Of a stretch of 64,000 nt of DNA, positions 4,270 through 38,091 are shown piece after piece (the first letter of the stretch is position 1; each line of letters opens with the position of its first letter). The notes beneath the pieces are model-generated. The model was given only the letters and a program-made list of their open reading frames with translations, ran no database searches and was not told the DNA's origin. Made by a program: the position numbers and the translations under genes. The stretch is from an uncultured Planctomycetales bacterium (GTDB lineage Bacteria > Omnitrophota > Gorgyraeia > Gygaellales > Profunditerraquicolaceae), in contig CAZYCL010000001.1 in NCBI GenBank assembly GCA_964645795.1, forward strand, positions 95,194 through 159,193. The letters run 5' to 3'.

Positions 4270-4276
4270 AAAACAT

Positions 4277-14705: not shown

Positions 14706-15878
14706 TTATCTTCTTATTAAACTAAGGTATTGCTGACCCCGGCCAAAAGCCTGGGCTAAAAACGCTGCCCTGGATATCTTATCCTCACTCAACTCATTGT
14801 CTGTCAAAAGGTTAAGTGATTGGACAATAGCCTGACTTACTCTTTCATCCATATCTTTTACTAACTCTCTGATTTCCTTAACCGTTCGGATTACTGATGT
14901 TAAATTAACAAATTCCTTTTTGGCCAGCTTATTCTCAATTATCTTAACCAGCTTAAGGAAATCCCCGATCTTCTTATAAAGCTTCCTATTAACCAGGGGG
15001 TCCCTCTGGCTCTCAGCCATATTCCATAACAGTAAAAGATGATGTTTGCGCCTGAACTGGTCGATGACATTTTTATTGGCGTCAAAACCTGTGTCCTTAT
15101 ACCAGGCGTAATCAGTAAACATTGCCGGCGAACTCCCAAGGAAGATAAATTCTTTTTTAAAAGCATTGATGCATTCCTCTATGCTCAAATTGCCATAGAT
15201 CGCCGGATTGAGGAAGTTATCCGCCACCCAATCCTCAACTGGCCGCGAAGCATGCTTCAGGCTTTTCAGATGACTCCCAAAAGCCCTTGATAGCACAGCT
15301 ACCTTCTCCTTAAAGTCGTTTGTTTTCTTCTTGAAAAGCAGGATGTGCCCCAGGAGCCGTTTCAGTATTTCGAAAAATAAACTCATATTATCGCTGCAGG
15401 TAACTACGAGTACCCCTTTGCGGCTGACTAGATTCGTTAACTTCTTGCTGATAATTTTTTGGGCCTCCTTGCCTAAGCCGTGCAAAAAGCCTTCGGCAAT
15501 AACTAAATCATACCCCTGCTCAAGGTTAAAATCCTCGATTTTCCCCGGGAAAAGCTTCCAACGGTTTTTTTCTATCTTGTGCCTTCGCAATAAAATCAGC
15601 AATTCCTTCTGTGCGGCTGGGTTGGGCTCAACAAAATCTACATCAGCGCCCCAAAAAAAGAAAGCCAGGGCATTATATCCGCCTCCCGGCCCCACTTCTA
15701 GGATGGTCTTATTCTTGAAGAATGCGGGTGCAATACCTAAAAGTCGATAAAGCCTTTGCCTGCGCTCAATGTGCCGCTTGAAGTTCCGGATATCCTGATG
15801 CACAGGCGATATTTTATGTCTGCCGTAAAAAAGTAAAAAGGGATTATCTTTTTTCATTCCTGCCGGGGATTTGCGCAT
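14706..15878 (-). CDS. Class I SAM-dependent methyltransferase
   Basis: ILEVGPGGGYNALAFFFWGADVDFVEP is a Rossmann motif I (GxGxG) followed by an acidic loop. Confidence 0.7.
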   Translation of the reverse strand: MRKSPAGMKKDNPFLLFYGRHKISPVHQDIRNFKRHIERRQRLYRLLGIAPAFFKNKTILEVGPGGGYNALAFFFWGADVDFVEPNPAAQKELLILLRRHKIEKNRWKLFPGKIEDFNLEQGYDLVIAEGFLHGLGKEAQKIISKKLTNLVSRKGVLVVTCSDNMSLFFEILKRLLGHILLFKKKTNDFKEKVAVLSRAFGSHLKSLKHASRPVEDWVADNFLNPAIYGNLSIEECINAFKKEFIFLGSSPAMFTDYAWYKDTGFDANKNVIDQFRRKHHLLLLWNMAESQRDPLVNRKLYKKIGDFLKLVKIIENKLAKKEFVNLTSVIRTVKEIRELVKDMDERVSQAIVQSLNLLTDNELSEDKISRAAFLAQAFGRGQQYLSLIRR

Positions 15879-16528
15879 AAGGCAATAAGATAGTGCGACA
15901 TGGCGAAGAAACCTGAATGCAGTACTTCGTCGTTCATGCCGAATATAAACACGTTTTTGAAGTATCTTCTCAAGTCGTTCTTTAATTCGGTTCCTGTCTT
16001 AGGATTCACATGCCCCTTTTTACTCCAATAAGAAGCATACCTTTGGCTTTCTTTGCTTGGAGTACCGATAATACAGATACCTGTTTTCTTTAGTGATTTG
16101 CTTATATTGAGCAAAAACATCGCCTCCTTGCTTTTAGGGATATGCTCCAGGACATCCAGGGAATAAGCTGCGTCATGAAGGGGGCGTACTGGCTTCTTAG
16201 TTAAATCCGCAACCTTAAAGACTACGTTATAATCTTTGCGTTTTACTTGGCAATCCTCAATAAAAACCGGATCAAAATCAACTGCCACAACCTTACCTGC
16301 TTCCTTCGCCACCAGCTCCGCTCCCACCCCGTCTCCGCAGCCGACCTCAAGGACGGTTTTGCATCCCGAGAGCATCTTAGCCACAAACTTATACCGAGCT
16401 AACATAAATAAGAGCCGTTTTGGGTCGGATCTCCAAAAATGGCTGGTATGCATGCCTAACTCAACTGCACCGATTTTTTCATATTCTTTTACTATCTGAT
16501 TGTACTGTTGCTCTTTGGTCGTCCTCAT
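15854..16528 (-). CDS. Class I SAM-dependent methyltransferase
   Basis: VLEVGCGDGVGAELVAKEAGKVVAVDFD motif. Start moved to the internal Met (MRTTKEQQY) to remove the 107-nt overlap with the upstream gene. Confidence 0.7.
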   Translation of the reverse strand: MRTTKEQQYNQIVKEYEKIGAVELGMHTSHFWRSDPKRLLFMLARYKFVAKMLSGCKTVLEVGCGDGVGAELVAKEAGKVVAVDFDPVFIEDCQVKRKDYNVVFKVADLTKKPVRPLHDAAYSLDVLEHIPKSKEAMFLLNISKSLKKTGICIIGTPSKESQRYASYWSKKGHVNPKTGTELKNDLRRYFKNVFIFGMNDEVLHSGFFAMSHYLIALCANPRQE

Positions 16529-16538
16529 AATTGCTCCT

Positions 16539-17621
16539 TTAATTAGGGATAGCGTACCAAACCGTATCCCAGAATGTTTTAGAGTAATGGGCGAGATGAT
16601 AAGTATAACCCTTAAGCATTTTCGACAAAAACAACGGAATAGCAAACATATCTTGCTTGCGATGATAAATGCTTACCGCCAGAGATGGCCGATGGGTACG
16701 GATGACAACCAGCCCTCCCTTCAACACATCCATTTCTGATCCCTCCACATCCAGTTTAATAAAATCGAGCTTTTCTATTCTTTTTTCCCTGACAAAATCA
16801 TCTATAGTAACCGTTTTTAACTTCTCGGCCCCTTTCCTGCCAAAAACTATACCTGAGCCCTCAGGATTATCCCGGCTATTCCAGAACGGTATCAGGCCGC
16901 CCTTGCTCCAGAGAAGATGAGGGTATATTTTTATATTCTTCTTATTTTTAAGATCCTTCTTGAAGGAAGATTGAATATTCTTATAGAGTGGGTCGAAACC
17001 GTAAATAAAACCTTTTGCGCCGGTCTTGCGAGAGAAATTAAGGGTATCTTTGCCGTTAAAGACCCCTCCCTCTATAACGGTGTGGATCTTACCCCAGGGC
17101 AGAAAATCCAGGTACTGCGAACTCTGCATCCTTTGCGATTTCACTCTGTTGTAAAGCTTAACCAAGCCCTCCGGATTCCGCATCCTGGCCCCTATCAACA
17201 ACCGATACAGATACCTCTCTCTTTTGTCTTCCAATAATTGCTCGGTATTTTTAAAAAACACGGAATATTTTCTTGCTTCGTCTGCATTAAAAATAAGGTA
17301 ATCGTAATAAAGCAGGGGGTTGACGATAAAATAATTTCTGATCCCTAAATCATCCAATCGCTCTTTAATCATCGGCCAGAATGCAGAAGTTACAAGGAGA
17401 CAATCGAGTTTTTTCATGTTGAGTGAGTCAATAGGATTTACTATCCTGAGCCCGCTTCTTACTCCGGTCTTATGGTCGTCGACAAAACAGGCGATAGCCA
17501 CGTCCCTGCGCCTGACCTCAAGCATCCCCTTGAAGCGCGCGCCACCGTCGCCGGCCCCATAAAGCCCGACCCGGCAGCCAATCGGTATCTGCTCAAACCT
17601 ATTGATAAACTTAGCTTTCAT
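16539..17621 (-). CDS. FkbM-family methyltransferase
   Basis: GFDPLYKNIQ...FIKLDVEGSEMDVLKGG is the FkbM-domain signature. Confidence 0.75.
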   Translation of the reverse strand: MKAKFINRFEQIPIGCRVGLYGAGDGGARFKGMLEVRRRDVAIACFVDDHKTGVRSGLRIVNPIDSLNMKKLDCLLVTSAFWPMIKERLDDLGIRNYFIVNPLLYYDYLIFNADEARKYSVFFKNTEQLLEDKRERYLYRLLIGARMRNPEGLVKLYNRVKSQRMQSSQYLDFLPWGKIHTVIEGGVFNGKDTLNFSRKTGAKGFIYGFDPLYKNIQSSFKKDLKNKKNIKIYPHLLWSKGGLIPFWNSRDNPEGSGIVFGRKGAEKLKTVTIDDFVREKRIEKLDFIKLDVEGSEMDVLKGGLVVIRTHRPSLAVSIYHRKQDMFAIPLFLSKMLKGYTYHLAHYSKTFWDTVWYAIPN

Positions 17622-18426
17622 CTAACGGGCCTAATATTTTGCTGATTTTCCCAACGTTAAGCGATGAGTTAAGCGCTCTTTTCTCCTCGCAGGGAAGGCT
17701 TAAAAAATCGATTTTTTCAATAAGGCGCTTATCGAGGCGATTTTCCTCTGCCACCCACAGCGCAAAATCATACCTGCTCATCGTCTTCGGGCAAGCGAGA
17801 TGGTATAAACCTGCGATATTCTTTTTAAGTGCCGCGTAAATCCAACCGCTTAAATCAATGACGTCTGTAGGGTTGAAAATCCGGTTGAACGCTGCTTTGA
17901 CGGGACGCTTATCCTTCAAATTTGAATATACATCTGAATATATGCTCTTTTCCTCAAGATTGCGGGAGTATGTCTGGCTCAGGCGCAAGATAAGATAATC
18001 CCTGATGTTGCCCTCGATAAATTGCTCGGTTTCGCGTTTCAGCTTTCCGTAAAGATTAACCGGGGCCGGCGGGTCAGTCTCCGAATAATTGCCCTTAGCG
18101 CCATCAAAGACCTGATCGGATGAAAGAAATACCACCTTGATCTTTCTGGAGGCCAAATAGGAAATGAATTCCGACGTCTTTTCGACATTTATGCGTCGGG
18201 CAAGCTCCCGGTCTTTAAGACAATCATCGATCTTGACGACAGCCGCAGCGACCACTACCCAATCGCAGGGATCAAACAAAGAGAAATCCCCGCTTAAAAG
18301 ATCGAAGTTTACCAGGCCGTTTTTCTTATGGGAAAGGCAGGTGCCGATTACTTTCTCTTTCCGGGAGAGAAAATTGAAAAGATTGTAACCAATAAGGCCG
18401 GATGCCCCCGCGATTCCTATCGTCAT
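17611..18426 (-). CDS. NAD(P)-dependent sugar reductase, dTDP-4-dehydrorhamnose reductase (RmlD)-like
   Basis: Glycine-rich N-terminus IGIAGASGLIGYNL. The C-terminal substrate-binding region is RmlD-like. Confidence 0.65.
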   Translation of the reverse strand: MTIGIAGASGLIGYNLFNFLSRKEKVIGTCLSHKKNGLVNFDLLSGDFSLFDPCDWVVVAAAVVKIDDCLKDRELARRINVEKTSEFISYLASRKIKVVFLSSDQVFDGAKGNYSETDPPAPVNLYGKLKRETEQFIEGNIRDYLILRLSQTYSRNLEEKSIYSDVYSNLKDKRPVKAAFNRIFNPTDVIDLSGWIYAALKKNIAGLYHLACPKTMSRYDFALWVAEENRLDKRLIEKIDFLSLPCEEKRALNSSLNVGKISKILGPLDES

Positions 18427-19493
18427 ACGAATTCAAGATGACCGCTGTCCGATTCCAGATATTCTAAAATCAGCTTATTCTTGTTATTGGCCACACAGTG
18501 ATGATTGCAGACCAATGAAGGGTTGATCTTAAAGAATTTGTTTTTGTCCGAATACCAAAATTCTTTAAAGCGCCGGTCTTTGATCGAACCTATAAGCCCC
18601 TGCTGTAGGTTATAGGCCTTATCCTGACAGGGATATATATTCATATCCGCCCCGATAACCGGAAGGACCTGAAGATAGGGGCACCAGGCATAATCTTTCT
18701 TGAATTTATCATCCAGCTCATGGTAGGCATCAAAAATCTCGAAACCTTCGCCGGTAAAATCGTTTATCGCACGGCAAACCTGCTCTTTAACAAGGGCGAA
18801 TACCGGCTTATGGTAATCGTTATTCTCTTTACCGTTATTGCTGACAATACAAGGAGAGACCTTGACACTGTCCACTTTCATGCCCTTAAGCCGGGATATA
18901 AAATCGTAGATATGGACAGCGTTCTCCCGGCCCACGATAAAGCTTATTCCCAGATAGCACTTGCCGTTGTGCTTCTTGAACTCTTCGATGTTCTTCATTA
19001 CTTTGCCAAACTCCCCTTTTGCTACCTTGCGATAACTCGAATAGCTCTCCTCATCCCATCCGTCGATGGAGATCCTAAGCCAGGTAGCGTTTTTTGCAAA
19101 AAAATTGGCGATTTCGCCGGTCAACAGCGCCCCGTTGGTAAGGCTGGCGAACTTTATGCCGCCACGCGCCAGATTCTTGACTGCTTCCAGTAAATAGGGA
19201 TAGCAGAAAGGCTCCCCCCCTCCGCTGAAAGTAACTGCCCTGACCTTCATCTCAACAAGATCATCGATGATCTCGAGCATCTTTTCTCTGGGGATAAAAT
19301 CGCGCGTCACCATGTCTTTACCCAGCTGCAGGTTATCTACGCGATAGGCGCAGTAATGGCAGTTGTGGTTACAGACATTGGTAGGCTTGATACGGATATG
19401 TATAGGCGCCAGGATCGCGGGATTCTCCTTGGGCAGCGAATCCAGCTTATCCTTGAAGTGGAAGACCTTGGTCTTTGTGTAGAGGTGCCCCAT
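18423..19493 (-). CDS. Radical SAM enzyme with a SPASM/twitch-like C-terminus
   Basis: CNHNCHYCAY (CxxxCxxC). C-terminal Cys clusters (C..GADMNIYPC, CNHHC). Start set at ATG 19491-19493 (MGHLYTK), 1 nt after the upstream stop. The Arg/Ser-rich 102-aa extension in the track is an overlap artefact. Confidence 0.8.
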   Translation of the reverse strand: MGHLYTKTKVFHFKDKLDSLPKENPAILAPIHIRIKPTNVCNHNCHYCAYRVDNLQLGKDMVTRDFIPREKMLEIIDDLVEMKVRAVTFSGGGEPFCYPYLLEAVKNLARGGIKFASLTNGALLTGEIANFFAKNATWLRISIDGWDEESYSSYRKVAKGEFGKVMKNIEEFKKHNGKCYLGISFIVGRENAVHIYDFISRLKGMKVDSVKVSPCIVSNNGKENNDYHKPVFALVKEQVCRAINDFTGEGFEIFDAYHELDDKFKKDYAWCPYLQVLPVIGADMNIYPCQDKAYNLQQGLIGSIKDRRFKEFWYSDKNKFFKINPSLVCNHHCVANNKNKLILEYLESDSGHLEFV

Positions 19494-19494
19494 T

Positions 19495-20157
19495 TTATTC
19501 GAAGAATATAAACTCGTAATCGCCGGTATAACCGAACTCTTTAAATAAAAACACCCACTCCTCGGGCCTGAAGAACGACTCGCAGGTAAGCGCCCAGCAT
19601 TCCAGATTAAACAGCTCTGCCTCGTCGCGATAACTTTCAACCGCGATATATTTGTTCTTGCCCACTCTCTCGATCTCCTTGACTGCCTTCTTAAGATCAG
19701 GCGCGATAAGATTATGCAAAGTGGTGATGGAGATGACCAGGTCAAACTCCTTCGGCTTAAAAGGGAACTTATCCTGGGCGCGCTGCACAAAAAGGTCATT
19801 TTTTATCTCTTCTTTCGCATCCCCAACGGCGTAGCTTGAGATATCAAAGCCCTTTACTTCGGCTTTGGGAATAAGCCGGGTGAACTCATAAAGCAGGTAT
19901 CCCTTGCCGCAGCCGACATCCAGGATCCGGGCATTCTTGGGCAGGCGGTAATGTTCGATGAGCTTGCGAGCGACCGGCTCCCATCTTCCGTCGTATTTAT
20001 AGCCTCCGTAACCGTAGCGTCTGTCTCCGTCCCAGAAATCCTTACCGTAGGAACGCGCGACCTGCATGCAGTGGATCTTGTCGTCCACCATCCTCTTAAG
20101 GTAATCGCGCTTTGTCCCTTTATGAAGCGAGGTGATGATATTAAGCTCTTTTAACAT
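19495..20157 (-). CDS. Class I SAM-dependent methyltransferase
   Basis: ILDVGCGKGYLLYEFTRLIPKAEVKGFDIS motif. Confidence 0.75.
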   Translation of the reverse strand: MLKELNIITSLHKGTKRDYLKRMVDDKIHCMQVARSYGKDFWDGDRRYGYGGYKYDGRWEPVARKLIEHYRLPKNARILDVGCGKGYLLYEFTRLIPKAEVKGFDISSYAVGDAKEEIKNDLFVQRAQDKFPFKPKEFDLVISITTLHNLIAPDLKKAVKEIERVGKNKYIAVESYRDEAELFNLECWALTCESFFRPEEWVFLFKEFGYTGDYEFIFFE

Positions 20158-21071
20158 TTTGACCTGACTCCTTTGATAAACTGAAATATCCTGTCCGCGG
20201 ATATGCCGAAATAATCGCGCATTCCGTCGGTAGTTTTTACCTCATGGAGGAACCTGTCGGCTATGCCCAGACAAAACAGCTTCCAGGGGACATCGGTCCT
20301 GGATCTTTCCCTGGCGATAATGCTGCCAAGGCCGCAGCCGATAAAATGCTCCTCTACGCACAATACCGTCTTGCAACTCTCCAGCAGCTTCAAGAGTCTT
20401 TCCTTGTTCAACGGCTGGACCATGGGCACGGATATTAACTTTACGTTAATGCCTTCCTTCTCAAGCATCTGTGCGGCCGCCAATACCTGCGTGCCTATGG
20501 AACCGTGGAATACTATGGCGATATCCCCTATTTCCCGCATGAGGATCGGTGCCGTGATATCGATATCGTGGCCGGCATGCAGTTTGGGCTCCCCCCTTTT
20601 TGCCAGCCTCACATACACAGGTTCCCGGGCAGAAAGAGAATACTCTGCCGCTTTTTGAGCTTCAACCGGGTCAATCGGCGAGATAACCGTCAGGTTCGGC
20701 AAGGTCTGGGCAACACCGATATCCTCTACCGAGTAATGCGTCATTCCTTGCGGCGCATAGGTCACGCCGCTGCCGATACCTGCCAGCACAACAGGAAGTT
20801 TCTGATAGCATATGTCGTTTCTAACCTGCTCATAACAGCGGTACAAAAGAAAAGGGATGATATTGTACAGGTAAACTTTGAACCCTGCCATGCTCATGCC
20901 TGCCGCAAAGCTGGTAGCGTTCTGCTCAGCCACGCCTAAATTGAGGAACTGCTCAGGAGAATCCTTCTGAAACTCATCGAATACCCCCAGGCCTGCATCT
21001 TCGCTTATAATAAATATATCTTTTCTTTGCTTAGAGGACTCTATTATCTTATTGATAAAGGTATTTCTCAT
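20151..21071 (-). CDS. Transketolase, C-terminal (pyrimidine-binding) subunit
   Basis: 306 aa with a Transket_pyr-like core. Stop/start overlaps the N-terminal subunit gene, as in split transketolases. Confidence 0.85.
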   Translation of the reverse strand: MRNTFINKIIESSKQRKDIFIISEDAGLGVFDEFQKDSPEQFLNLGVAEQNATSFAAGMSMAGFKVYLYNIIPFLLYRCYEQVRNDICYQKLPVVLAGIGSGVTYAPQGMTHYSVEDIGVAQTLPNLTVISPIDPVEAQKAAEYSLSAREPVYVRLAKRGEPKLHAGHDIDITAPILMREIGDIAIVFHGSIGTQVLAAAQMLEKEGINVKLISVPMVQPLNKERLLKLLESCKTVLCVEEHFIGCGLGSIIARERSRTDVPWKLFCLGIADRFLHEVKTTDGMRDYFGISADRIFQFIKGVRSKC

Positions 21072-21850
21072 CCCAATTCCTTTAACGCCTTCTCTTTTAT
21101 CTCGTCGGTCACCAGGTAATAATGCCAGACAAGCTCATCCTCCATAAAAGATACGCCTTTGCCCTTGGTCGTGCAGCAAAGGATGATCTTTGGCTTTCCG
21201 GGGCAGTCGGCATTCAGCGCCTCTTCGATCTGGGAATAATCGTGTCCGCCGGCCTCAAATACTCCCCAGCCGAACGATTCCCACTTTTTACGCAACGGCT
21301 CAAAATGGCAGATCTCTTTGGCGCGGCCGTAGCCCTGAAGGTTGTTGAAATCTACAAGAGCGGTGAAGTTATCGATGTTCAGCTTGGAGGCGAAGAGCGC
21401 GCCTTCCCAGATAGAGCCCTCCTGCGACTCTCCGTCGCCGATAAGGGCATAGACTTTGCGGTTGTTTGCCTGCTTCTTAAAAGCATAAGCAAGCCCCAAG
21501 CCGACGTTGAAGCCGTGGCCGAGAGAGCCCGCGGAAACTTCTATGCCCCTGGCAGAGAATCGGTCCAGGTGCGCAGGAAGCGTCCCATTGTTTAAATAGT
21601 AACCATCGAGTGTGGCGGCATCGATGATGCCTTTCTGCGCCAAGGTCGCATAAAGCGATATTGCCGCATGCCCTTTACTTAAAATAAAGATGTCCCTTTT
21701 GTCCCAGGGCTCAAGCACGAGCTTCCTGAAGTAAAGCGTGGCAAGGATATCCACGCAGGACAAAGCCGAGCCCACGTGGGGGCTCTTGGAGCGATGCGCG
21801 GCAATGATTATCTTCTTTCTTATCTGCCTGGCAATATCTTTTAGGTCCAT
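21068..21850 (-). CDS. Transketolase, N-terminal (thiamine-diphosphate-binding) subunit
   Basis: SKGHAAISLYATLAQKG...GSLGHGFNVGLGLAYAFK...LIGDGESQEGSIWEGALFASKLNIDN are TPP-binding motifs. Confidence 0.85.
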   Translation of the reverse strand: MDLKDIARQIRKKIIIAAHRSKSPHVGSALSCVDILATLYFRKLVLEPWDKRDIFILSKGHAAISLYATLAQKGIIDAATLDGYYLNNGTLPAHLDRFSARGIEVSAGSLGHGFNVGLGLAYAFKKQANNRKVYALIGDGESQEGSIWEGALFASKLNIDNFTALVDFNNLQGYGRAKEICHFEPLRKKWESFGWGVFEAGGHDYSQIEEALNADCPGKPKIILCCTTKGKGVSFMEDELVWHYYLVTDEIKEKALKELG

Positions 21851-23815: not shown

Positions 23816-23818
23816 GGA

Positions 23819-30063: not shown

Positions 30064-30121
30064 TTTTCCTCAATGCTGCATTTTTAGATACAGACAAAAA
30101 TCTTGGCAATTTTGGCTATTT

Positions 30122-31729
30122 TCAGGAATTAAGCCTTTCTTTGGCTTCACTGGAATCCGGGTTAAGCTCTAACGCTGTTCTCCACTCTCTGGCCGCTTCC
30201 TCAACCATGCCTTTCTTTTTATAGGCATCGCCTAAGAAGAGGTGGCCGTACCAGATATGCGGATAAAACTCCAGGACGGACTGAAAATCCCTGATCGCTT
30301 CGTCAATATCATATTTAATCAAATTAGGGTTATTCCTGAAATTTATGTCGATATTGGCTTCCTCTTTGACCTTCTCAACGTAATCGCCGTCAAACTCAGG
30401 AGTCTGGATATTGCCGGCGTAGAAACTGTGCGCGAAATCCACGGATTCGTCCTTTAGATAGCGCTTATTCTTGCAAATCTCATAAATCTTGGTCCCCACC
30501 AGAGGCGTGGCGATAAAAAACAGGGTCCAGTCCAGCTCAAGGCTTTTGGCGAAATCCACTGTCTTTTGCATGGTCTTCTTAGTCTCTCCGGGAAAGCCTA
30601 AAATAAAAAATCCCTTGGTCTTCATGCCCAGCGAGCGCGCCTTATCTGCGAGCGGTTTGGCGCGGTTAAGCTTTATCGGTTTGTGCATCAATTTATCCAG
30701 GACATGCTGGTCTCCGGATTCGACGGCCAGCGAAATGCTGTAACAGCCGCTTTGCGCCATTTTTTCCAGCAACTCCTCGTCTAAGGAATAAATCGCCAGG
30801 CCGCTGGGGACGGTCCAACTGATATTAAATTTTCTATCGATTATCCCGTTAAATATCTCCAGGGCGCGCTTTTTGTTGGAGGTTAAATTGTCGTCTTCAA
30901 AGTGTATTTCCTTGACTCCGTACTTTTTGATGAGAAACTCAATTTCTTCAAGGATGCTTTTGCTTGAGCGGTAGCGCGGGACCTTTCCCCATAAAAGCTC
31001 TATTGAGCAGAATGTGCATTTGGCAGGGCAGCCGCGCGAGCTGATAATCGAAGCGAAAGGTTTGTTTTTGTAGCCGCTGTGCGCCGAGCCAAGCCGGCTG
31101 TACTCCTGCATGCTTAAAAGGTGCCGCGCGGGAAAAGGCAGGGTATCGAGATTAGGGATAAAATGCGCCTTGTGGACACAATTAATTTTTCCTTCGTGAC
31201 GATAGGCGATACCATCGAGCATCCTTGGGTCTCCGCCTGACTTAATAATGCCTAACAACTGCAAGAAAGTCATTTCTCCTTCGCCTAAAATTACGTAATC
31301 AATGTTTATTTCATTTTCCAGGAGCTCTCTGGCAATAGCCGTAGGATGCACCCCCCCTACAGCCACCAAACACCGGGGGTTGACTTTCTTAACAATGCGG
31401 CTGGCGTTGCGCATATCCCAATCCTTGTTTGAAAAAAGACACGAAATGCCGACAATATCGGGATTTTCTTTACGCAGGATCTCTTCGATCTGCTGGTCAG
31501 TCAGGCCATAACGCAACATCCCTTCGTTATATTTTTGCTGCCCCTGCCCTGCCCCCTCCAGTAGCGCATCAATAATCTTTACCTCATAGCCTGAATCCTC
31601 CAGCACCGCTGCGATATAGGCCAGCCCCAAAGGCGCGAATACGCTGACGCGACAACGCTCTTTAGAGAAATCCGCGGGCCTGGTCACCGGAGGGTCTATC
31701 AGCAATATCTTTTTTATCCTACTGGTCAT
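30122..31729 (-). CDS. B12-binding radical SAM enzyme with a C-terminal TPR; tandem paralog of the 28444-30063 protein
   Basis: Roughly 55-60% identical by eye to the neighbouring protein over the core (FPARHL...SSRGCPAKCTFCS...EIHFEDDN...KFNISW). TPR tail EWRTALELNPDSSEA. Confidence 0.85.
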   Translation of the reverse strand: MTSRIKKILLIDPPVTRPADFSKERCRVSVFAPLGLAYIAAVLEDSGYEVKIIDALLEGAGQGQQKYNEGMLRYGLTDQQIEEILRKENPDIVGISCLFSNKDWDMRNASRIVKKVNPRCLVAVGGVHPTAIARELLENEINIDYVILGEGEMTFLQLLGIIKSGGDPRMLDGIAYRHEGKINCVHKAHFIPNLDTLPFPARHLLSMQEYSRLGSAHSGYKNKPFASIISSRGCPAKCTFCSIELLWGKVPRYRSSKSILEEIEFLIKKYGVKEIHFEDDNLTSNKKRALEIFNGIIDRKFNISWTVPSGLAIYSLDEELLEKMAQSGCYSISLAVESGDQHVLDKLMHKPIKLNRAKPLADKARSLGMKTKGFFILGFPGETKKTMQKTVDFAKSLELDWTLFFIATPLVGTKIYEICKNKRYLKDESVDFAHSFYAGNIQTPEFDGDYVEKVKEEANIDINFRNNPNLIKYDIDEAIRDFQSVLEFYPHIWYGHLFLGDAYKKKGMVEEAAREWRTALELNPDSSEAKERLNS

Positions 31730-33162
31730 TTCTTTCTTGCGGCAATGGACTGCGCGGTGACGTTGCGGCCGCGCAACTTTGGCGTCCTCTTATAATAAAA
31801 CTCTAACAGCTTCTTAACTCCGGGCACTCCCCTAAAGTAAAAAAATAGTTTCGATAACCAAAGCGCGGTATACGGTATAACGCTTGCCAACTGGTAATAA
31901 AAATCGGATTCGTCATAGTCAGAATACCCGCGCTCGTAGGGGTTGGTTCTCGGGACTACCCCTCTTTGTTTATATATCTCTTCCAATTCTGTACGGGGAT
32001 AGGCTGTTAAGGCATAAAGCGTCAAGGAAAACGGCCGGGCAATTTTAAGAAGAAGCTTTATGGTCTGGTTGCGGTCACGATCCTCTTCCAGGTCGTTTTG
32101 TATAATGATATCGTAGTAAGGATACACTTGGTTGCGGCTTAATATACGCGATGAACCGACTACGGCGCTTTTATTGAACGACCGATGGTAGATCAGGCGG
32201 TGCGTACGGCTGCTGCCCGACTGTATGCCGATCTGAGTAAACATCAAACCCGCATCCTTTAATTTCTTTAGTACGCCGTCATCGAAACTGCCCGGCACAA
32301 GCCTTACGATAAAAGGCAGCCCTACCTCTTTCGTATAACGTTCGATAAATTCGTCATTCCACTGCCTGGAAGTCAGAAATTGATCATCAATAAAATTAAC
32401 GAATTTGATATTCGGGATATACTCTAAGGCATATTTGATCTCGGCAATGACGTGACCGACGCTTCGTTTCCTTATCCTGTTACCCTCTTTATAGAGGCTA
32501 TTTAAATAGCTGTTACAGCAATAGCTGCAGCTAAAGGGGCAGCCTCGCGTTGCCATTAAAGTATAATCCTCGCCCCGGTAATTTGAATACCTTACATACT
32601 CCTCTTGGCTGAACCGGCGAAGGCCGAATCTGTCAATAACATAAAAATCAGACCAGCCGTACCGCGGGAAGGCAATACTGTCTAAGTCGCTATTTAACTG
32701 CGGAGGATTTATGATGCACTTGCCTTCTTTTGTCTTTAAGCCGATGCCGGGTATCGAAGAAATATCCCTTCCGGTAAAAAAACATTGCAGTAGCTTAAGA
32801 AACGCTACCTCTCCTTCCCCGATACATACGCTATCTGCATATTCAAGGCATTCCTGCGGCATAAGCGTCGGGTGTATCCCTCCCCATGTAATGTGAGCGC
32901 GGTCAAGAAATTTTTTTATATCCGAGGTTAGGCGGCGGCTGAAATCCATCCCATCGGTCATCAGCGATATGCCGACTACCGAGAAGGCCTCTGCGTTCAG
33001 CAGCTCCCTCAATTGCTCGCTATTATATTCGTCTTGCCTTGGGACAAAAAGGAGCTTTACATCGATAGAAGCTGCCTTTAATGCCGAATACAGCGAAAGA
33101 CAGCTTAAATTACGGTGACTGTCGCGTAAAATAGAAATAAGGAGAACGCTTGGTTCAGGCAT
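31726..33162 (-). CDS. B12-binding radical SAM enzyme
   Basis: VVGISLMTDG...ITWGGIHPT B12 region and MATRGCPFSCSYCCNS. No TPR tail. Confidence 0.8.
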   Translation of the reverse strand: MPEPSVLLISILRDSHRNLSCLSLYSALKAASIDVKLLFVPRQDEYNSEQLRELLNAEAFSVVGISLMTDGMDFSRRLTSDIKKFLDRAHITWGGIHPTLMPQECLEYADSVCIGEGEVAFLKLLQCFFTGRDISSIPGIGLKTKEGKCIINPPQLNSDLDSIAFPRYGWSDFYVIDRFGLRRFSQEEYVRYSNYRGEDYTLMATRGCPFSCSYCCNSYLNSLYKEGNRIRKRSVGHVIAEIKYALEYIPNIKFVNFIDDQFLTSRQWNDEFIERYTKEVGLPFIVRLVPGSFDDGVLKKLKDAGLMFTQIGIQSGSSRTHRLIYHRSFNKSAVVGSSRILSRNQVYPYYDIIIQNDLEEDRDRNQTIKLLLKIARPFSLTLYALTAYPRTELEEIYKQRGVVPRTNPYERGYSDYDESDFYYQLASVIPYTALWLSKLFFYFRGVPGVKKLLEFYYKRTPKLRGRNVTAQSIAARKK

Positions 33163-33164
33163 TG

Positions 33165-34301
33165 CTAAAAACTCAGGCGTCTGTTCAAGAGACGATCATC
33201 CAGCTTAACAGCCCTCAATATATTAGTAATCTTTTTATCCGTATTCAAGTCGCGGTAGGGATTGCCTCCTTTTATCCGTTTATAGCTATTCTTTCTAAAC
33301 CGCTTTATGGCCTGGATAATCTTACGTTTAGAATAGGGCACATCGACAACATTGGCCGCGCGCTCCCTACCGTCCTGACGGCTGCCGATATTTACCACAG
33401 GCGTGCCGAAAAACGGCGCCTCAACTATACCGCTGGAAGAATTGCCTATCAGTACCGAGGCATATTTGAGCAGCCCCAGATAATAAGGACGCTCGATATT
33501 CTTGAATATCCTGATAAAAGGAAACTTGCGATACTTTAATATTTCCTTAATCATGCTTTGCCCGCCCATATCGCAATTGGGATAGAATATTACGGTTTGG
33601 GTTTTAAAATGCCTTGCCGCCTCAAGCGTCCGGCGCATCTGCAAGGCCGCATCCCGATATTCATTCGCCACCGGATGCTGGATCACTAAAAATAGGGCCT
33701 TATTAAGATCTATCCCCAGCTTTCTTCGGATCTCTTCCTTTGAACAGGACTGTCCGAGAATGGCTTTGGATACGGCCAGGGTCCCGACATATTTGATGCG
33801 CCATGGCTCCTCCCCCATTCTTAAAAGCCTCTTGCAGCTTGCCTTTGTATTTGCCAAATGAAGATGAGCAAACCTGGATAAGCTGTGCCTTATGGCATCA
33901 TCCATGCCTCCGGAAACATCGCCTCCGGATATATGGACAATGGGCAGATTCAAGAATGCCGCGGCAAGCCCTGCCGCAAGCATCTCGATCCTGTCAGCCT
34001 CAAGCACTACGATATCAGGCTCTAATTTTTTAAAAATACGCGCAAAACCCGGTACCGCCCTGGCAAATGAACCGGCCAGTTGCAAGCCGCCTTCTTTCCC
34101 GGAAAAAATATCCAGTTTTGCGCTTATTTTGAAGCCATCCTTGCGGATGATATCTACCGATGAACCAAAACGCCGCATAAGATGCATCCCGCAGACAACC
34201 AATTGCAGCCTTAAATCAGCGCTGTCCCTGATGCGCTCTAAAAACGGCTTCATCACCCCGTATTCTGCCCGCGTTCCCGTAATAACGCATATTTTTCTCA
34301 T
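33165..34301 (-). CDS. neuC: UDP-N-acetylglucosamine 2-epimerase (hydrolysing), NeuC/LegG family
   Basis: KICVITGTRAEYGVMKP...VHISGGDVSGG...YLGLLKYASVLIGNSSSGIVEAPFFGTPVVNIG is the NeuC signature. Confidence 0.85.
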   Translation of the reverse strand: MRKICVITGTRAEYGVMKPFLERIRDSADLRLQLVVCGMHLMRRFGSSVDIIRKDGFKISAKLDIFSGKEGGLQLAGSFARAVPGFARIFKKLEPDIVVLEADRIEMLAAGLAAAFLNLPIVHISGGDVSGGMDDAIRHSLSRFAHLHLANTKASCKRLLRMGEEPWRIKYVGTLAVSKAILGQSCSKEEIRRKLGIDLNKALFLVIQHPVANEYRDAALQMRRTLEAARHFKTQTVIFYPNCDMGGQSMIKEILKYRKFPFIRIFKNIERPYYLGLLKYASVLIGNSSSGIVEAPFFGTPVVNIGSRQDGRERAANVVDVPYSKRKIIQAIKRFRKNSYKRIKGGNPYRDLNTDKKITNILRAVKLDDRLLNRRLSF

Positions 34302-35737
34302 GCCGCGTACTGGAATTTTCCTTTACAAAATTGGCATAAAGACAAATTTTCGAGCCTGTGATTCAATAAAGAACACTGCAACATCTTCATGCGCTCGGAG
34401 CTCCAGACCGCATCAACGCTGCAGTCTTTCGCATTGCCGAGCTCCATCTCTGCGTTAACATCATAGCAGCACGGAGTGATGGTGCCATCGCATAGAATGT
34501 TCAGTTTCTCAAGAGATTCCGGACACAGCGTATCCTGCCCAGCCGCGCGTCCCGGAATAATTGCCGCTTCTTTGAACGAAAACAACTTTCCGTCACGGCC
34601 AAAGAAACTCCCTCCCAGCCTGCGGTCAAGCACAGAGAACCCGCTGTAATCAACCAGGGGCAGGAGCGAAGATAAAAAACCAGAAGTTTTCCTGGTGCCT
34701 TCGGGATCGCTAAACGGTATGACCGAGGTTATGCCCAGCTTTATCTGGTCCTCAAGCCCCATTTCTTTCCTTTCACGGTTAACCGTCTTTATGATCCTGC
34801 AAATCTTGTTCCAGCTGCTGCCCTTACGCACCGACTCATAGCTCTCTTTGCTGAAACCGTCAACAGAAAACCAGATGCCCGAAGGCCGGGCTTCCAGTAT
34901 CTTTTTTCTCCGCTCGCAATCTGCCAGCGCAAATCCATTGGTCTGTAAAGCAAGGTATATCCCCTCTTGCCTGATCTTTGATATCAAGGTATCGATCCCC
35001 GGATGCAGCAGCGGCTCTCCCATATAATAAAATTTGATAACGCCGGGCACTTTCCAATTCTTAATTATGGCTCTATCCAAAACTAAATGCGGGATGCTTA
35101 TCTCAATACTCCTCGCGCTCCAGCCTGAAATTATCTTATCTAAAAGGGCCTCATCAAGATACCCGATGTTTCTGGCCATCTTGTGGCGGGGGCACATCAG
35201 GCATTTTATGTCGCAATTGTTGGTAGGTTCGACCTGAAGCACAAAGGGGGATTTGGGCACAGGATAAATCCCTCCCTCCACGCATCCCGATTCGTTCCTG
35301 ATGCACCAAACAAGGTGGCGTTTCAACATGCTCTCCGCTTCTTTACGCAAAAGAAGGTCTTCTACATCGTGCGCTATGAGACGCGCCTTTACCGCCGCCT
35401 TGTTGCTGTATTTTAACGCCAGGGTATTGTCCAGCTTAAAAACGGTATGAAATTCTGAGAGCGCCGCCAATTGCAACGCCACCTGTCCGACAAAACGCTT
35501 GGTTTCAATATCCGGATTCTTGAACAAAAGCAAATTTTCATAAAGCTCGCAGATTTCGTTTAAATGCGCCAGGCCTCCCGAGAAATCATCGTCGTAAATC
35601 TTGGCTATTCCCGCGCAGTAACGCACTGCCAAATCCTGCGGCCGGTGCATCACGATGCTTTCAGTCAGGTCGATAATATCTTTTATCCTGCGCTGTTTTG
35701 AGAGCTCATACAGTCTGTTCTTGAGTTCGCAATCCAT
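34298..35737 (-). CDS. Radical SAM enzyme with a full SPASM-like C-terminal domain and a ~150-aa N-terminal helical extension
   Basis: NNCDIKCLMCPRH. C-terminus CPESLEKLNILCDGTITPCCYD....C....C..C. Confidence 0.8.
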   Translation of the reverse strand: MDCELKNRLYELSKQRRIKDIIDLTESIVMHRPQDLAVRYCAGIAKIYDDDFSGGLAHLNEICELYENLLLFKNPDIETKRFVGQVALQLAALSEFHTVFKLDNTLALKYSNKAAVKARLIAHDVEDLLLRKEAESMLKRHLVWCIRNESGCVEGGIYPVPKSPFVLQVEPTNNCDIKCLMCPRHKMARNIGYLDEALLDKIISGWSARSIEISIPHLVLDRAIIKNWKVPGVIKFYYMGEPLLHPGIDTLISKIRQEGIYLALQTNGFALADCERRKKILEARPSGIWFSVDGFSKESYESVRKGSSWNKICRIIKTVNRERKEMGLEDQIKLGITSVIPFSDPEGTRKTSGFLSSLLPLVDYSGFSVLDRRLGGSFFGRDGKLFSFKEAAIIPGRAAGQDTLCPESLEKLNILCDGTITPCCYDVNAEMELGNAKDCSVDAVWSSERMKMLQCSLLNHRLENLSLCQFCKGKFQYAA

Positions 35738-36259
35738 TTACTTACCCTGGATTTCCTTAAGCTGCTGTTCAAGCGCCTCCCGGCGCGCCCGCTCTTCGCC
35801 TAAATACCACTGCGTATCGCGCAGCTGCTGTTCGGCTGAAACGGCCTTTTCCCTGAGGCTGTTAAGCTCCCCCTCCATCGACTCGCAGCGCTGGCGGAAT
35901 TCACTCAGGGAATTTTCCGAATGCTCGCGCTTGGACTTTTCCTCTCCCAGCTGCCAGGCAGCTTCGTCATGCTGAGATTTAAGCTTCTGCGAATACTCTT
36001 CCATCTTATGGACGTATTCGTTCTTTTCCCTAAGCTGCAACTCCAGGCTTTCTCTACGCGCCCTCTCTTCGCCCAAAAACCAGCGCGCATCCTGCAGGTC
36101 ATTCTTTAATCCCTCAAGCTCCGCCTCTTTCTCCTTGGCAGCCTGGCTGATGCAAGCCTGAATTTCTACAAGAAACTTGTCTTTATCGGACTGGAGCCTC
36201 TGAAGTATAAGTTCAACGATCTTGGCCAGTGCCGCCTCCCCTATCGTAACAGCCGCCAT
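35738..36259 (-). CDS. Coiled-coil protein with three internal W-x-LGEE-[RK]-x-[RK]-RE repeats
   Basis: Repeats WFLGEERARRESLELQL / WQLGEEKSKREHSENSL / WYLGEERARREALEQQL. GGGAGG RBS upstream. No known domain. Confidence 0.5.
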   Translation of the reverse strand: MAAVTIGEAALAKIVELILQRLQSDKDKFLVEIQACISQAAKEKEAELEGLKNDLQDARWFLGEERARRESLELQLREKNEYVHKMEEYSQKLKSQHDEAAWQLGEEKSKREHSENSLSEFRQRCESMEGELNSLREKAVSAEQQLRDTQWYLGEERARREALEQQLKEIQGK

Positions 36260-36277
36260 ATCCAGCCTCCCTACCGC

Positions 36278-37324
36278 CTACAGGTCGCCCTTCCTGATGG
36301 GCATATCCCTCTTAACGTCTTTCTTTAGCTTCTTGCCGATGATTTCAAAGTAGTGTTTCGGCAGAAGCCCATGCTGAGGTCGTTTAATTGCCAAATGTTG
36401 TTTTTTGATCCTGGTGCCCCTGGGTAAATCCACTTTGGCCACTATGCTTTTTCTTATGCAAGTCATGTCCTTTTTCTCGGTCTTGGTCGGACATTTCTTG
36501 CTGCTGCCAAGGCACTCTTCCGTTTCACGTAAAAGCTTTACGAAAACCTTGAACTCTTCGGGCTCATAGGAAGAGGCGTGGTCGGGACCGGGAAGCTTTC
36601 GGTCAAGGGTTATATGCTTTTCAATAACGCAGGCACCAAGGCTGACCGCACTCATACTGGCGCTAACGCCTGCAGTATGGTCGGAATATCCTACCGGAAG
36701 CCTCAGGCATTCTCTGATAGTCGAAAGCGCGCGCATATTCACGTCTTTGAGCGGGCAGGGGTATTGGGTCGTCGTATGCATCACTATAAGTGGAACCCGC
36801 CTGGTCTTAAGAATTACATCGTATACGGCCTCTTTTATCTCCTTGAGCGTGCCCATGCCCGTAGAAAGAATGATGGGTTTGCCTTTTGCGGCAACGTATT
36901 CCAGAAGCGGGAAATTGTTAAGGTCATCGGAACCGATCTTGAATAACGACACTCCCAGCCTGTCTAACAGGTCGGCCGAGGCAAAATCTCCCGGAGTAGA
37001 AATCAGGATTATGCCTCTGTCTTTGGCAAACTTCATAAGCTGAAAGTGGTCCTGGTCCGACAGCTCCAGGGCCCTAAGCATGTCAAACTGAGTACGCGCG
37101 CCCTTGGCAAACTCCTTTTGATAGGGGACCAGCCTGGTCGTGCGGCTTACCACCTCTTCGGTCTTGAATGTCTGGAACTTTACGGCGTCGGCGCCCGCAT
37201 GGCTGGCTGCCACGATCAATCTCTTGGCCAGCTCAATATCTCCGTTATGATTGACTCCCGCTTCTGCAATTATAAAGACAGGTTTGTTATTGCCGATTTC
37301 TTTTTTCCCGATTTTAACAATCAT
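36278..37324 (-). CDS. neuB: N-acetylneuraminate / legionaminate / pseudaminate synthase (NeuB family)
   Basis: KPVFIIAEAGVNHNGDIELAKRLIVAASHAGADAVKFQTF. C-terminal SAF/antifreeze-like domain. Confidence 0.9.
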   Translation of the reverse strand: MIVKIGKKEIGNNKPVFIIAEAGVNHNGDIELAKRLIVAASHAGADAVKFQTFKTEEVVSRTTRLVPYQKEFAKGARTQFDMLRALELSDQDHFQLMKFAKDRGIILISTPGDFASADLLDRLGVSLFKIGSDDLNNFPLLEYVAAKGKPIILSTGMGTLKEIKEAVYDVILKTRRVPLIVMHTTTQYPCPLKDVNMRALSTIRECLRLPVGYSDHTAGVSASMSAVSLGACVIEKHITLDRKLPGPDHASSYEPEEFKVFVKLLRETEECLGSSKKCPTKTEKKDMTCIRKSIVAKVDLPRGTRIKKQHLAIKRPQHGLLPKHYFEIIGKKLKKDVKRDMPIRKGDL

Positions 37325-37368
37325 TTTTGCTGGTCTCCTTGTTGAGGTTGTGCAATAAGGAAAATCGA

Positions 37369-38091
37369 CTAAATTATCATCCCCCCTTTTCTTTTTTTCA
37401 TTATTAATCCAGCTATCTCTAAATCGAAATAATTATCTATGTCCCAGGCAGCCAGATCTCCGGTCGTAAAACCGATAACTTTATGCCCTTTAAAGTAGTG
37501 CGAAACAATGAACGGGTCTGAGCCATAAAGCAGGCTTGTCTTCAGGATTATCAACCCGGAATCGATGTAAAAAACAGGAGGCAGGCGCTGGCTGCGGAAA
37601 GTTGAGATTTTTTTTGCATAGAGATTAAACCTGCGGTTTTTTGCCAGAATAACCAGGCGCTCGGGGTGAAACCGCTCAACGGGGGAAACCGTTACCAGAG
37701 CATCCGCCCTGCAGGAAATCATCTTTTTTATTGCCGAATCTATGAGCCCTTTTTCACGAAAAGGAACATTTGCATATAAGAGCGCAATCGCATCCGGCCG
37801 GTAACCGTCTTTTTCCTTCAGGTATTCTACGGCATGCCTTAACGGCTCCTCTATGGGGGAATAATCGGTTGCGTACCGGCTGGGCCGCTTGATTGCCTCC
37901 AAACCGCGGGCCCTGACAAGCTTAAAGATCCGCTCGGAGTCTGTAGAGCACACTACCCTGTCCAAAAGCCGTGACTGCCTGGCTGCATCTATGGTATAAC
38001 TTATCAAAGGCCTGCCTCGGAAAATAAGTATATTCTTATTGCGCACTCTCTTGCTGTTTCCTCTGGCTGTAATTATCCCTAGTATTTTCAT
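37369..38091 (-). CDS. neuA: Acylneuraminate cytidylyltransferase (CMP-nonulosonate synthetase, NeuA/LegF/PseF family)
   Basis: MKILGIITARGNSKRVRNKNI...STDSERI matches the CMP-NeuAc synthetase N-terminus. Confidence 0.85.
   Translation of the reverse strand: MKILGIITARGNSKRVRNKNILIFRGRPLISYTIDAARQSRLLDRVVCSTDSERIFKLVRARGLEAIKRPSRYATDYSPIEEPLRHAVEYLKEKDGYRPDAIALLYANVPFREKGLIDSAIKKMISCRADALVTVSPVERFHPERLVILAKNRRFNLYAKKISTFRSQRLPPVFYIDSGLIILKTSLLYGSDPFIVSHYFKGHKVIGFTTGDLAAWDIDNYFDLEIAGLIMKKRKGGMII

Follow-up and report, generated by a model that had tools for sequence, protein, structure and literature searches.

Gene content of the island between flgN and flgM

The 64,000-nt stretch of contig CAZYCL010000001.1 analyzed here (hereafter the window) contains, at positions 14706–38091, a ~23-kb island of genes for glycan synthesis and modification located between the flagellar genes flgN and flgM and including seven genes for radical S-adenosylmethionine (SAM) enzymes, three of them cobalamin (B12)-binding. 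According to the listing of open reading frames (ORFs), the island comprises 22 genes, all on the minus strand and with a coding density of ~100%; each of the 21 internal junctions is either an overlap or a gap of at most 58 nt when the start codons are taken from the public gene calls on the identical contig L001. This confirms the co-directional packing described in an earlier reading of the same DNA made from the sequence alone (hereafter the original prediction). Families were assigned by Pfam and NCBIfam profile searches of the window proteins, with the curated cutoffs being applied for equivalogs. From the first to the last gene, the island consists of:

37369–38091, minus strand: cytidylyltransferase, CMP-nonulosonate synthetase-like (NeuA/LegF-like), first gene of the island (PF02348, CTP_transf_3, E 7.6e-18)
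36278–37324, minus strand: NeuB/LegI-type nonulosonate synthase with SAF domain (PF03102, E 1.5e-83)
35738–36259, minus strand: 173-aa predicted coiled-coil orphan flanked by the NeuB gene and a radical SAM gene (no Pfam or NCBIfam family)
34298–35737, minus strand: radical SAM protein with SPASM domain, 479 aa (PF04055, PF13186; CX3CX2C at residue 175)
33165–34301, minus strand: NeuC/LegG-type hydrolysing UDP-sugar 2-epimerase (TIGR03568)
31726–33162, minus strand: B12-binding radical SAM protein without tetratricopeptide repeats (TPR), 478 aa (PF02310, PF04055)
30122–31729, minus strand: B12-binding radical SAM protein with C-terminal TPR, 535 aa, paralogue 1 (PF02310, PF04055, TPR)
28444–30063, minus strand: B12-binding radical SAM protein with C-terminal TPR, 539 aa, paralogue 2 (Pfam)
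27772–28443, minus strand: class-I SAM methyltransferase, 223 aa (PF13649, E 1.5e-19)
26675–27796, minus strand: FemAB-like/Acetyltransf_6 acyl- or aminoacyl-transferase, 373 aa (PF02388, PF13480)
24771–26678, minus strand: 635-aa candidate flagellin glycosyltransferase, Maf-type N-domain and CgeB-like GT-B (PF13524, E 4e-29)
23819–24757, minus strand: GT9-family glycosyltransferase, 312 aa (PF01075, E 5e-13)
22916–23815, minus strand: radical SAM protein, 299 aa, with C-terminal Cys cluster (PF04055; CX3CX2C at residue 25 and six C-terminal Cys)
21851–22915, minus strand: radical SAM protein with SPASM/twitch domain, 354 aa (PF04055, PF13186)
21068–21850, minus strand: N-terminal, thiamine pyrophosphate (TPP)-binding half of transketolase (PF00456, E 1.2e-29)
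20151–21071, minus strand: pyrimidine-binding and C-terminal half of transketolase (PF02779, PF02780)
19495–20157, minus strand: class-I SAM methyltransferase, 220 aa (PF13847, E 4e-19)
18423–19496, minus strand: radical SAM protein, ~357 aa (356 aa in the L001 gene call), twitch-like 4-Cys C-terminus (PF04055, E 1.5e-22)
17611–18426, minus strand: RmlD-like 4-keto-sugar reductase (PF04321, E 5e-42; TIGR01214 140 bits, below the cutoff of 224)
16539–17621, minus strand: FkbM-family methyltransferase, 360 aa (PF05050; TIGR01444 66.8 bits versus a cutoff of 37.7)
15854–16645, minus strand: class-I SAM methyltransferase, 224–263 aa depending on start choice (224 aa in the L001 call) (PF13649, PF08241)
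14706–15878, minus strand: 383–390-aa product of the last island gene, its N-terminal region weakly similar to methyltransferases (PF08242 23.1 bits, short of the 30-bit cutoff, E 1e-4; no NCBIfam match)

Pfam bears out the GT9, FemAB-like, RmlD-like and split-transketolase genes named in the original prediction, as well as four of the five methyltransferases counted there, namely the FkbM protein and three clear class-I enzymes; the fifth, encoded by the last gene, is weak and remains below cutoff. The 173-aa coiled-coil protein yielded no homologue in tblastn searches against loci L005–L010. Pfam detected no Wzx, Wzy, ABC exporter or initiating phosphoglycosyl transferase among the 22 proteins, and a gene set lacking flippase, polymerase, exporter and initiating transferase fits cytoplasmic protein glycosylation. 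At the island borders we found no tRNA gene, boundary repeat or integrase, that is, no sign of a mobile element. The glycan modules have a GC content of 0.44–0.47 versus 0.51 in the flagellar core (0.44–0.45 in 14706–20157 and 500–7850 compared with 38269–64000), which is consistent with mosaic acquisition. Homopolymer tracts that might serve as phase-variation switches are not enriched, the window containing only three C7 runs; C7/G7 runs are found inside two radical SAM genes (19214–19220 and 31351–31357) and are too short and too few for a claim of phase variation.

The CMP-nonulosonate route recognized in the original prediction holds, with NeuC clearly passing its equivalog cutoff (TIGR03568, 403 versus 236 bits) and NeuB passing marginally (TIGR03569, 404.7 versus 399.65 bits), whereas the cytidylyltransferase is assigned by Pfam only and passes no equivalog cutoff, its best NCBIfam match being PseF at 120 bits, below 205.7. 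The closest solved structures to the cytidylyltransferase are the CMP-Neu5Ac synthetases 6ifd, 9ftb and 1eyr, and NeuC is equally near to LegG (5xvs, 199.6 bits) and to the epimerase domain of human GNE (198 bits). The pseudaminic acid route does not use NeuC-type epimerases. Two dehydratase/DegT aminotransferase pairs are encoded just beyond the window edge, on the longer public contig L091. From these genes, we infer that the product of the island is a CMP-nonulosonate of the Neu/Leg type.

Flagellar setting and the glycosylation supercluster

The gene order around the island is FlgJ-like, FlgN, island, FlgM, FlgK, FlgL, FliW, CsrA, flagellin, a weak FlaG-like ORF, FliD and Maf. The following features outside the island are pertinent to its interpretation:

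47097–47795, minus strand: sigma-70-family protein of FliA size, 232 aa, in the same cluster
38269–38763, minus strand: flgN, last flagellar gene ahead of the island, separated from it by 177 nt (PF05130, E 6e-20)
14570–14596, minus strand: perfect sigma-28 consensus TAAA-N15-GCCGATAA just 5′ of flgM, zero mismatches
14220–14549, minus strand: flgM (anti-sigma-28), 109 aa, first gene of the flgM-flgK-flgL-fliW-csrA unit (PF04316; ATG at 14549 after GGAGG)
11072–11098, minus strand: perfect sigma-28 consensus TAAA-N15-GCCGATAA upstream of flagellin, zero mismatches
10087–10920, minus strand: flagellin, 277 aa, presumed acceptor (PF00669, PF00700)
5916–7850, minus strand: true Maf flagellin nonulosonate transferase, 644 aa, outside the island after fliD (PF01973, E 1e-43; PF20157, E 4e-6)
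500–5837, minus strand: second tailoring block, comprising a DUF8042 protein, a radical SAM-SPASM protein of 312 aa, an AsnB-like amidotransferase, a GNAT protein and a radical SAM-SPASM protein of 340 aa (Pfam)

On one side of the island is the flgF-G-A-H-I-J-N block, and on the other flgMKL-fliW-csrA, which forms a sigma-28 unit of its own. The sigma-28 consensus occurs at zero mismatches in only two copies in the 64 kb (by chance, ~0.008 perfect 12-base matches are expected), one in front of flgM and one in front of fliC, and the 177-nt gap between flgN and the island contains no sigma-28 site. Since a perfect sigma-28 promoter precedes both flgM and fliC, the island is situated at a boundary between transcription units, and the proposed splitting of a late operon is not borne out. 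A single long island transcript, perhaps read through from flgN, is plausible; generic scans for sigma-70 promoters and terminators gave no more matches than chance would (22, with 20.9 and 16.6 expected) and are uninformative with respect to transcripts. The flagellin itself consists of D0–D1 only, with a Ser/Thr-rich centre at approximately residues 140–200 and no Cys, and its gene is preceded by the FliW–CsrA pair.

The island is not self-contained: it is the largest of three blocks of a ~47-kb glycosylation supercluster that is interleaved with flgMKL, fliC, fliD and fliS of an uncultured diderm bacterium that branches deeply. The second block (500–5837) contributes two further radical SAM proteins, both of which also contain PF13186, bringing the total for the supercluster to nine. 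The third block extends past the left edge of the window (L091, 11042–20018) and encodes a GT1 glycosyltransferase, WbqC, a Polysacc_synt_2 dehydratase, DegT, fliS, a second dehydratase/DegT pair and DUF327, so that fliS sits among glycan genes. The Maf genes of the original prediction are not part of the island; the true Maf lies downstream of fliD and matches the Magnetospirillum Maf structure 5mu5 (M. magneticum) at E 2e-13. The DUF8042/TP0873_N protein (187–195 aa; 5250–5837, minus strand) adjoins Maf in all three members of the lineage and, judging by this position, could be a Maf adaptor resembling GlfM, which is a cis-encoded four-helix bundle (bioRxiv 10.1101/2023.12.03.569772).

The 635-aa island protein, previously viewed as a Maf-like/CgeB fusion, retains both halves of that description, a Maf-type N-domain and a CgeB-like GT-B, and lacks DUF115: there is no match to the DUF115/MptE-like family PF01973 even at E ≤ 10, and Pfam finds only PF13524, at the C-terminus. 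Alignment of its N-domain to that of Maf with hhalign gave a probability of 92.9% (E 3.8e-7; residues 3–154 versus 26–173), and the first ~150 residues match Maf proteins of the lineage in BLASTP at E 0.001. The AlphaFold2 (AF2) model was built from a 3-sequence alignment and reached a predicted local distance difference test score (pLDDT) of 36.5, so the Maf-like N-domain is assigned from sequence. The family is large (8,629 relatives at E ≤ 1e-3); all ten relatives sampled have the C-terminal CgeB-like GT-B, preceded by either Maf_flag10_N or TPR, and two of the relatives (P0252 and P0269) pass the cutoff of PF20157 (Maf_flag10_N). This architecture, an N-terminal acceptor-binding module followed by a C-terminal GT-B, is that of FlmG of Caulobacter and Brevundimonas, which represents the second class of flagellin nonulosonate transferases to have been recognized, and it is through such an architecture that FlmG and Maf-1 bind flagellin (PMC7591256; bioRxiv 10.1101/2023.12.03.569772); the likeness is one of architecture only, the N-terminal module of the 635-aa protein being of Maf type, unlike the TPR of FlmG. 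The island thus probably brings its own flagellin-directed glycosyltransferase besides Maf, and the thousands of proteins combining Maf-N or TPR with a CgeB-like GT-B may constitute a broad unrecognized class of protein-targeted glycosyltransferases. No likeness to the Maf N-domain was seen in the 543-aa GT1 encoded outside the window.

The embedding in flagellar genes, the presence of Maf and the position of fliS among glycan genes make the flagellin glycan the likely target, in line with the original prediction. We estimate at roughly 0.6 the probability that the 22 genes are part of a flagellin O-glycosylation supercluster which makes and attaches a radical-SAM-tailored, nonulosonate-type glycan.

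A lineage-specific glycan slot upstream of flgM

Identical copies of the window proteins are found only on Logan or NCBI metagenome-derived contigs. FlgK identity among relatives is 69%, 59% and 57% and then drops to 38% or less, at which level the nearest named matches belong to metagenome-assembled genomes (MAGs) of Armatimonadota, Nitrospirota and Chloroflexota. The two closest relatives represented by long contigs (L005 and L006; FlgK 69% and 59%) carry radical-SAM-rich blocks directly upstream of flgM, with differing contents. L005 shares with the island, in the same order, the 223-aa methyltransferase, the FemAB-like protein, the 635-aa glycosyltransferase, GT9 (66% identical, at the equal position), the 299-aa radical SAM protein (72%) and the 354-aa radical SAM-SPASM protein (39%); it has a different B12-radical SAM protein and, at the position of the transketolase, an E1_dh/Transket_pyr TPP pair, and is devoid of the last six island genes. 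The L006 block encodes UDP-galactopyranose mutase, two B12-radical SAM proteins, two radical SAM-SPASM proteins and thioredoxin. A 50%-identical homologue of the 478-aa B12-radical SAM protein is present in L006, and homologues of the 479-aa protein (37–38% identity) occur in both relatives, in which fliD is followed by Maf, DUF8042, radical SAM-SPASM and further glycan genes.

A metagenome scan with FlgI recovered only distant relatives (43–44% identity), which served as outgroups. In L094, L095 and L098 (FlgK 34–37% or FlgI 44%), flgN/flgJ is contiguous with flgK, or the order is flgM-flgN-flgK, and there is no island; the synteny comparison suggested in the original prediction thus points to a lineage-specific insertion. 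The island-free outgroups, together with the different blocks in L005 and L006, mark the site upstream of flgM as a hypervariable slot for glycan genes that is specific to the lineage. A hypervariable flagellar region following a matching logic has recently been described in Clostridium (PMC13317340). In the outgroup L094 (GCA_027392615.1), the flagellin gene is followed at 14310–19457 by a gene for a 1,715-aa protein with GT2, GT1 and methyltransferase domains, which may be a fused flagellin-glycosylation enzyme.

Radical SAM enzymes of the island

Seven radical SAM proteins, three of them B12-binding, were expected from the original prediction and are recovered by Pfam, each with exactly one CX3CX2C motif. 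Of the other four, described as SPASM/twitch-like, the 479-aa and 354-aa proteins contain a Pfam SPASM domain; the 357-aa and 299-aa proteins display only a C-terminal Cys pattern. The B12-type proteins combine PF02310 (65–94 bits) with PF04055. Paralogues 1 and 2 are encoded in tandem (28444–31729), share 46% amino acid identity and additionally retain a 77-nt DNA repeat at 71% identity, which indicates that the tandem genes for B12-binding radical SAM proteins with TPR (hereafter B12-rSAM-TPR) arose by local duplication.

The B12-type proteins resemble class B radical SAM enzymes (GenK, GenD1, Fom3, TokK, CysS and AprD4-like) in the N-terminal Rossmann-like B12 domain followed by the radical SAM barrel with CX3CX2C, and by this analogy are likely to carry out alkylation or rearrangement at an unactivated sugar or acyl-group carbon. 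They differ from class B members in being encoded in a glycan locus rather than an antibiotic cluster, in the C-terminal TPR tail and in having no equivalog match. The small radical SAM proteins resemble BtrN, DesII and BlsE, with one CX3CX2C and a 4-Cys C-terminal motif. BlsE (7vob) and DesII (8hzv) are the structures nearest to the 354-aa protein, and BlsE and DesII are likewise nearest to the ~357-aa protein; the C-terminal region of the 479-aa protein resembles the auxiliary-cluster domain of BtrN, and MoaA is also among the best solved relatives of the small proteins. The similarity to BlsE, DesII and BtrN is weak (E 1e-4 to 1e-8) and confined to the core.

Such an assemblage of radical SAM proteins, B12 methylases, a TPP enzyme, methyltransferases and glycosyltransferases is typical of antibiotic sugar tailoring (GenK, AprD4, BtrN, BlsE, DesII), raising the alternative that the island is a secondary-metabolite cluster for a diffusible aminoglycoside- or nucleoside-like compound or for a peptide that is made ribosomally and then modified post-translationally (RiPP). 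The 22 proteins, however, include no precursor peptide, protease, transporter, resistance protein, or polyketide synthase, nonribosomal peptide synthetase or cyclitol scaffold enzyme, but do include CMP-nonulosonate enzymes, the genes of which are linked to the cassette described below, and the flagellar position is conserved; we regard a metabolite cluster as very improbable. The RiPP variant was rejected: the gaps, none longer than 58 nt, leave no space for a precursor peptide gene, and no protease or transporter family is represented among the 22 proteins.

A B12-radical SAM cassette linked to NeuB and NeuC

The B12-rSAM-TPR proteins belong to a family of more than 3,800 proteins (E ≤ 1e-30), with 525 confirmed relatives in GTDB species genomes, the best 80 of which are all from MAGs. 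Among these best 80 of 525 loci, we compared homologues whose alignment reaches the TPR with the rest: NeuB/NeuC is encoded within 10 kb of five of the seven TPR-tail homologues versus one of the 73 others (Fisher p = 5e-6). In L009, L012, L013, L014, L015 and L022, the end of NeuC directly abuts the start of B12-rSAM-TPR, and the order in L015 is NeuC, B12-rSAM-TPR, NeuB, DegT, Maf. The closest family members sit in glycan loci, not flagellar ones. An Aenigmarchaeota locus, in which the homologue adjoining NeuC is 52% identical to the 535-aa protein, encodes NeuA, NeuB, NeuC, B12-rSAM-TPR, DUF362, a methyltransferase, FemAB, a second B12-radical SAM protein, DegT, a dehydratase and a radical SAM-SPASM protein; an Omnitrophota locus encodes a methyltransferase, B12-rSAM-TPR, MBOAT, FemAB, DegT, NeuB, NeuC, a nucleotidyltransferase, NeuA and a B12-radical SAM protein. 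Homologues of the 223-aa methyltransferase adjoin B12-rSAM-TPR in L009, L010, L012 and L014, and those of the FemAB-like protein are found in L005, L008, L009, L010, L012, L014, L015 and L022.

The linkage to NeuB/NeuC and the gene contexts suggest that B12-rSAM-TPR, the 223-aa methyltransferase and the FemAB-like protein form a nonulosonate-tailoring cassette shared by Bacteria and DPANN Archaea, coupled to Maf in some flagellated lineages and here apparently recruited to flagellin. Going further, we tentatively propose, as a possibility that falls somewhat short of even odds, that the cassette (NeuC, B12-rSAM-TPR, class-I methyltransferase, FemAB-like, NeuB and NeuA) represents an undescribed cobalamin/radical branch of nonulosonate biosynthesis, yielding C-alkylated or radical-modified 'higher-carbon' sugars and spread horizontally across DPANN and uncultured anaerobic bacterial phyla; in the present genome it would have been recruited, duplicated and joined to additional radical SAM modules for flagellin, with the TPR tail perhaps allowing work on the glycoprotein. 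An independent flagellin-linked radical-SAM-rich cluster, in a Desulfobulbales MAG (L069, 170–18579; JBFHWX010000053.1), lies directly 5′ of three flagellin genes and encodes three B12-radical SAM proteins, a radical SAM-SPASM protein, a TPP enzyme, an iron-containing alcohol dehydrogenase, NeuB, an ATP-grasp ligase and a GH57-like protein.

Targets of the glycan and of the radical SAM enzymes

Several observations speak against a radical-SAM-tailored flagellin glycan, and some of them favour other targets. Flagellin glycosylation is here a prediction from gene content; RmlA, RmlB and RmlC are absent from the window; and the upstream borders of the island were not seen in L005 and L006. No radical SAM protein meets any NCBIfam equivalog cutoff, the best match of the B12 type being NF038361 at 256–283 bits versus 575, so that each specific reaction assigned to these enzymes is a prediction. 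The B12-radical SAM/NeuBC cassette is not specific to flagella, occurring in DPANN archaea, which have none, in Omnitrophota and in Actinomycetes, where the closest B12-rSAM-TPR homologue (56% identity) belongs to an O-antigen-like Wzx/Wzy/Bac_transf locus. GT9 proteins, moreover, are classically heptosyltransferases of the lipopolysaccharide (LPS) core. The last two points would agree with an island that makes a general surface glycan (LPS O-antigen or core, capsule or S-layer) and does not target flagellin. Against such a glycan stand the 22 genes without flippase, polymerase, exporter or initiating transferase, the site upstream of flgM kept in three lineage members, the interleaving of Maf and fliS with the companion blocks, and the Maf-type N-domain of one of the island's own glycosyltransferases, and we consider a surface glycan improbable, a little more so than the protein-directed chemistry discussed next.

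The AF2 model of paralogue 2 (pLDDT 94) was matched by Foldseek to MgmA, AprD4, TsrM, OxsB, CysS and TokK. MgmA, a protein glutamine C-methyltransferase, is the top match by E-value, which is a further point against a sugar substrate; AprD4, a sugar enzyme, equals it by template modelling score (TM-score), and the comparison therefore did not separate sugar from protein substrates. AprD4 does not use cobalamin as methyl donor. Mmp10/MgmA C-methylate methyl-coenzyme M reductase and would be the model for an action of the TPR-tailed B12 and SPASM/twitch enzymes on protein, either directly on flagellin residues or on the glycan after its attachment, with the TPR as flagellin-binding module. Most SPASM radical SAM enzymes mature peptides or proteins, and RiPP maturases account for many of the weak NCBIfam matches of the island proteins. 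Further in favour of protein as the substrate, the TPR of Maf-1 and FlmG bind flagellin (bioRxiv 10.1101/2023.12.03.569772; PMC7591256), and FliB, to which PMC13317340 refers, is a precedent for the methylation of flagellin. Yet the TPR-type enzymes adjoin NeuC/NeuB in DPANN archaea lacking flagella and occur in the O-antigen-like locus, the nearest solved relatives of the small enzymes (BlsE, DesII and BtrN) act on sugars, and the Cys-free flagellin offers no site for thioether chemistry. Action on protein in either of these ways is unlikely in our estimate. Action of the radical SAM enzymes on sugar rather than peptide is favoured by the linkage to NeuB/NeuC, the likeness to BlsE, DesII, BtrN and AprD4, the lack of space for a precursor peptide and the absence of Cys from flagellin.

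Proposed pathway and comparison with known systems

In the pathway that we propose for a flagellin glycan, the dehydratase/aminotransferase pairs outside the window, NeuC, NeuB and the cytidylyltransferase would produce a CMP-activated nonulosonic acid of the Neu/Leg type. The cassette (two B12-rSAM-TPR proteins, the third B12-radical SAM protein, the 223-aa methyltransferase and the FemAB-like protein) would tailor this nonulosonate or its N-acyl groups, probably by cobalamin-dependent C-methylation, N-acylation and N- or O-methylation, and the TPR-bearing enzymes might target either the nucleotide sugar or the already glycosylated protein. A second module, formed by the 299-aa, 354-aa and 357-aa radical SAM proteins, the split transketolase, the RmlD-like reductase and the FkbM and class-I methyltransferases, may supply a branched, methylated deoxysugar; E1/transketolase-type enzymes attach two-carbon branches to keto-sugars in antibiotic pathways. 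Maf would then transfer the nonulosonate to Ser/Thr residues of flagellin in the cytoplasm, before export, and the glycan on flagellin could be extended by the Maf-N/CgeB-like GT-B and GT9 enzymes.

To our knowledge, flagellin glycosylation islands and the nonulosonate chemistry they encode are known only with conventional tailoring, that is, acyl, amidino and N- or O-methyl groups. The supercluster resembles the Maf-dependent islands and hypervariable regions of Campylobacter, Helicobacter, Aeromonas, Shewanella, Geobacillus and Clostridium (PMC13317340, PMC5109656) in its location in the flagellar locus by fliC/fliD/fliS, in the presence of Maf (DUF115), NeuB/NeuC/cytidylyltransferase, dehydratase/aminotransferase and class-I and FkbM methyltransferase genes, and in the combination of variable content with conserved flagellar genes. 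It departs from them in its nine radical SAM proteins (three of cobalamin type), the TPP-dependent split transketolase, the Maf-N GT-B, the flgN–flgM site and the very large size (23 kb for the island and ~47 kb in total). The two comparative papers contain no mention of 'radical', 'cobalamin' or 'transketolase', nor does a review of B12-radical SAM enzymes from 2026 refer to glycans or polysaccharides. Full-text literature searches, within the text that they cover, returned no pairing of radical SAM enzymes with flagellin glycosylation or nonulosonates; their sole match was a table entry for a region of Campylobacter fetus, by our reading a surface-glycan region, which lists phase-variable radical SAM genes of the MoaA/NifB/PqqE family amid methyltransferase, formyltransferase and short-chain dehydrogenase/reductase genes (PMC6321876). 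As far as that entry goes, the C. fetus region differs from the island in having two radical SAM genes only and no B12 type. The suggestion that radical SAM richness is undescribed in flagellin glycosylation islands thus agrees with the literature found. Hypervariable flagellar regions, nonulosonate pathways, Maf and islands for flagellin glycosylation were all known before; new are the extent to which radical SAM and cobalamin chemistry is represented, the tie of the B12-rSAM-TPR cassette to NeuB/NeuC across domains, and the family uniting Maf-N or TPR with a CgeB-like GT-B.

Nine oxygen-sensitive radical SAM enzymes, three of cobalamin type, devoted to a flagellar glycan would predict new sugar chemistry, namely C-methylation, C-branching and deoxygenation, and would tie the surface chemistry of the flagellum to anaerobiosis and cobamide supply. 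The NeuC-linked cassette, found from DPANN archaea to Thermodesulfobacteriota, provides a testable entry point of five or six genes for which heterologous expression is possible; it is relevant to the as yet unexplained range of masses seen in environmental nonulosonic acids, 'higher carbon variants' among them (PMC8157484), and would offer new enzymes to glyco-engineers.

Elsewhere in the flagellar part of the window, two tandem YcgR-like PilZ proteins (PilZNR + PilZ) are encoded at 48167–49542 on the minus strand, adjoining FlhF and FlhA, and suggest braking of the motor by cyclic di-GMP.

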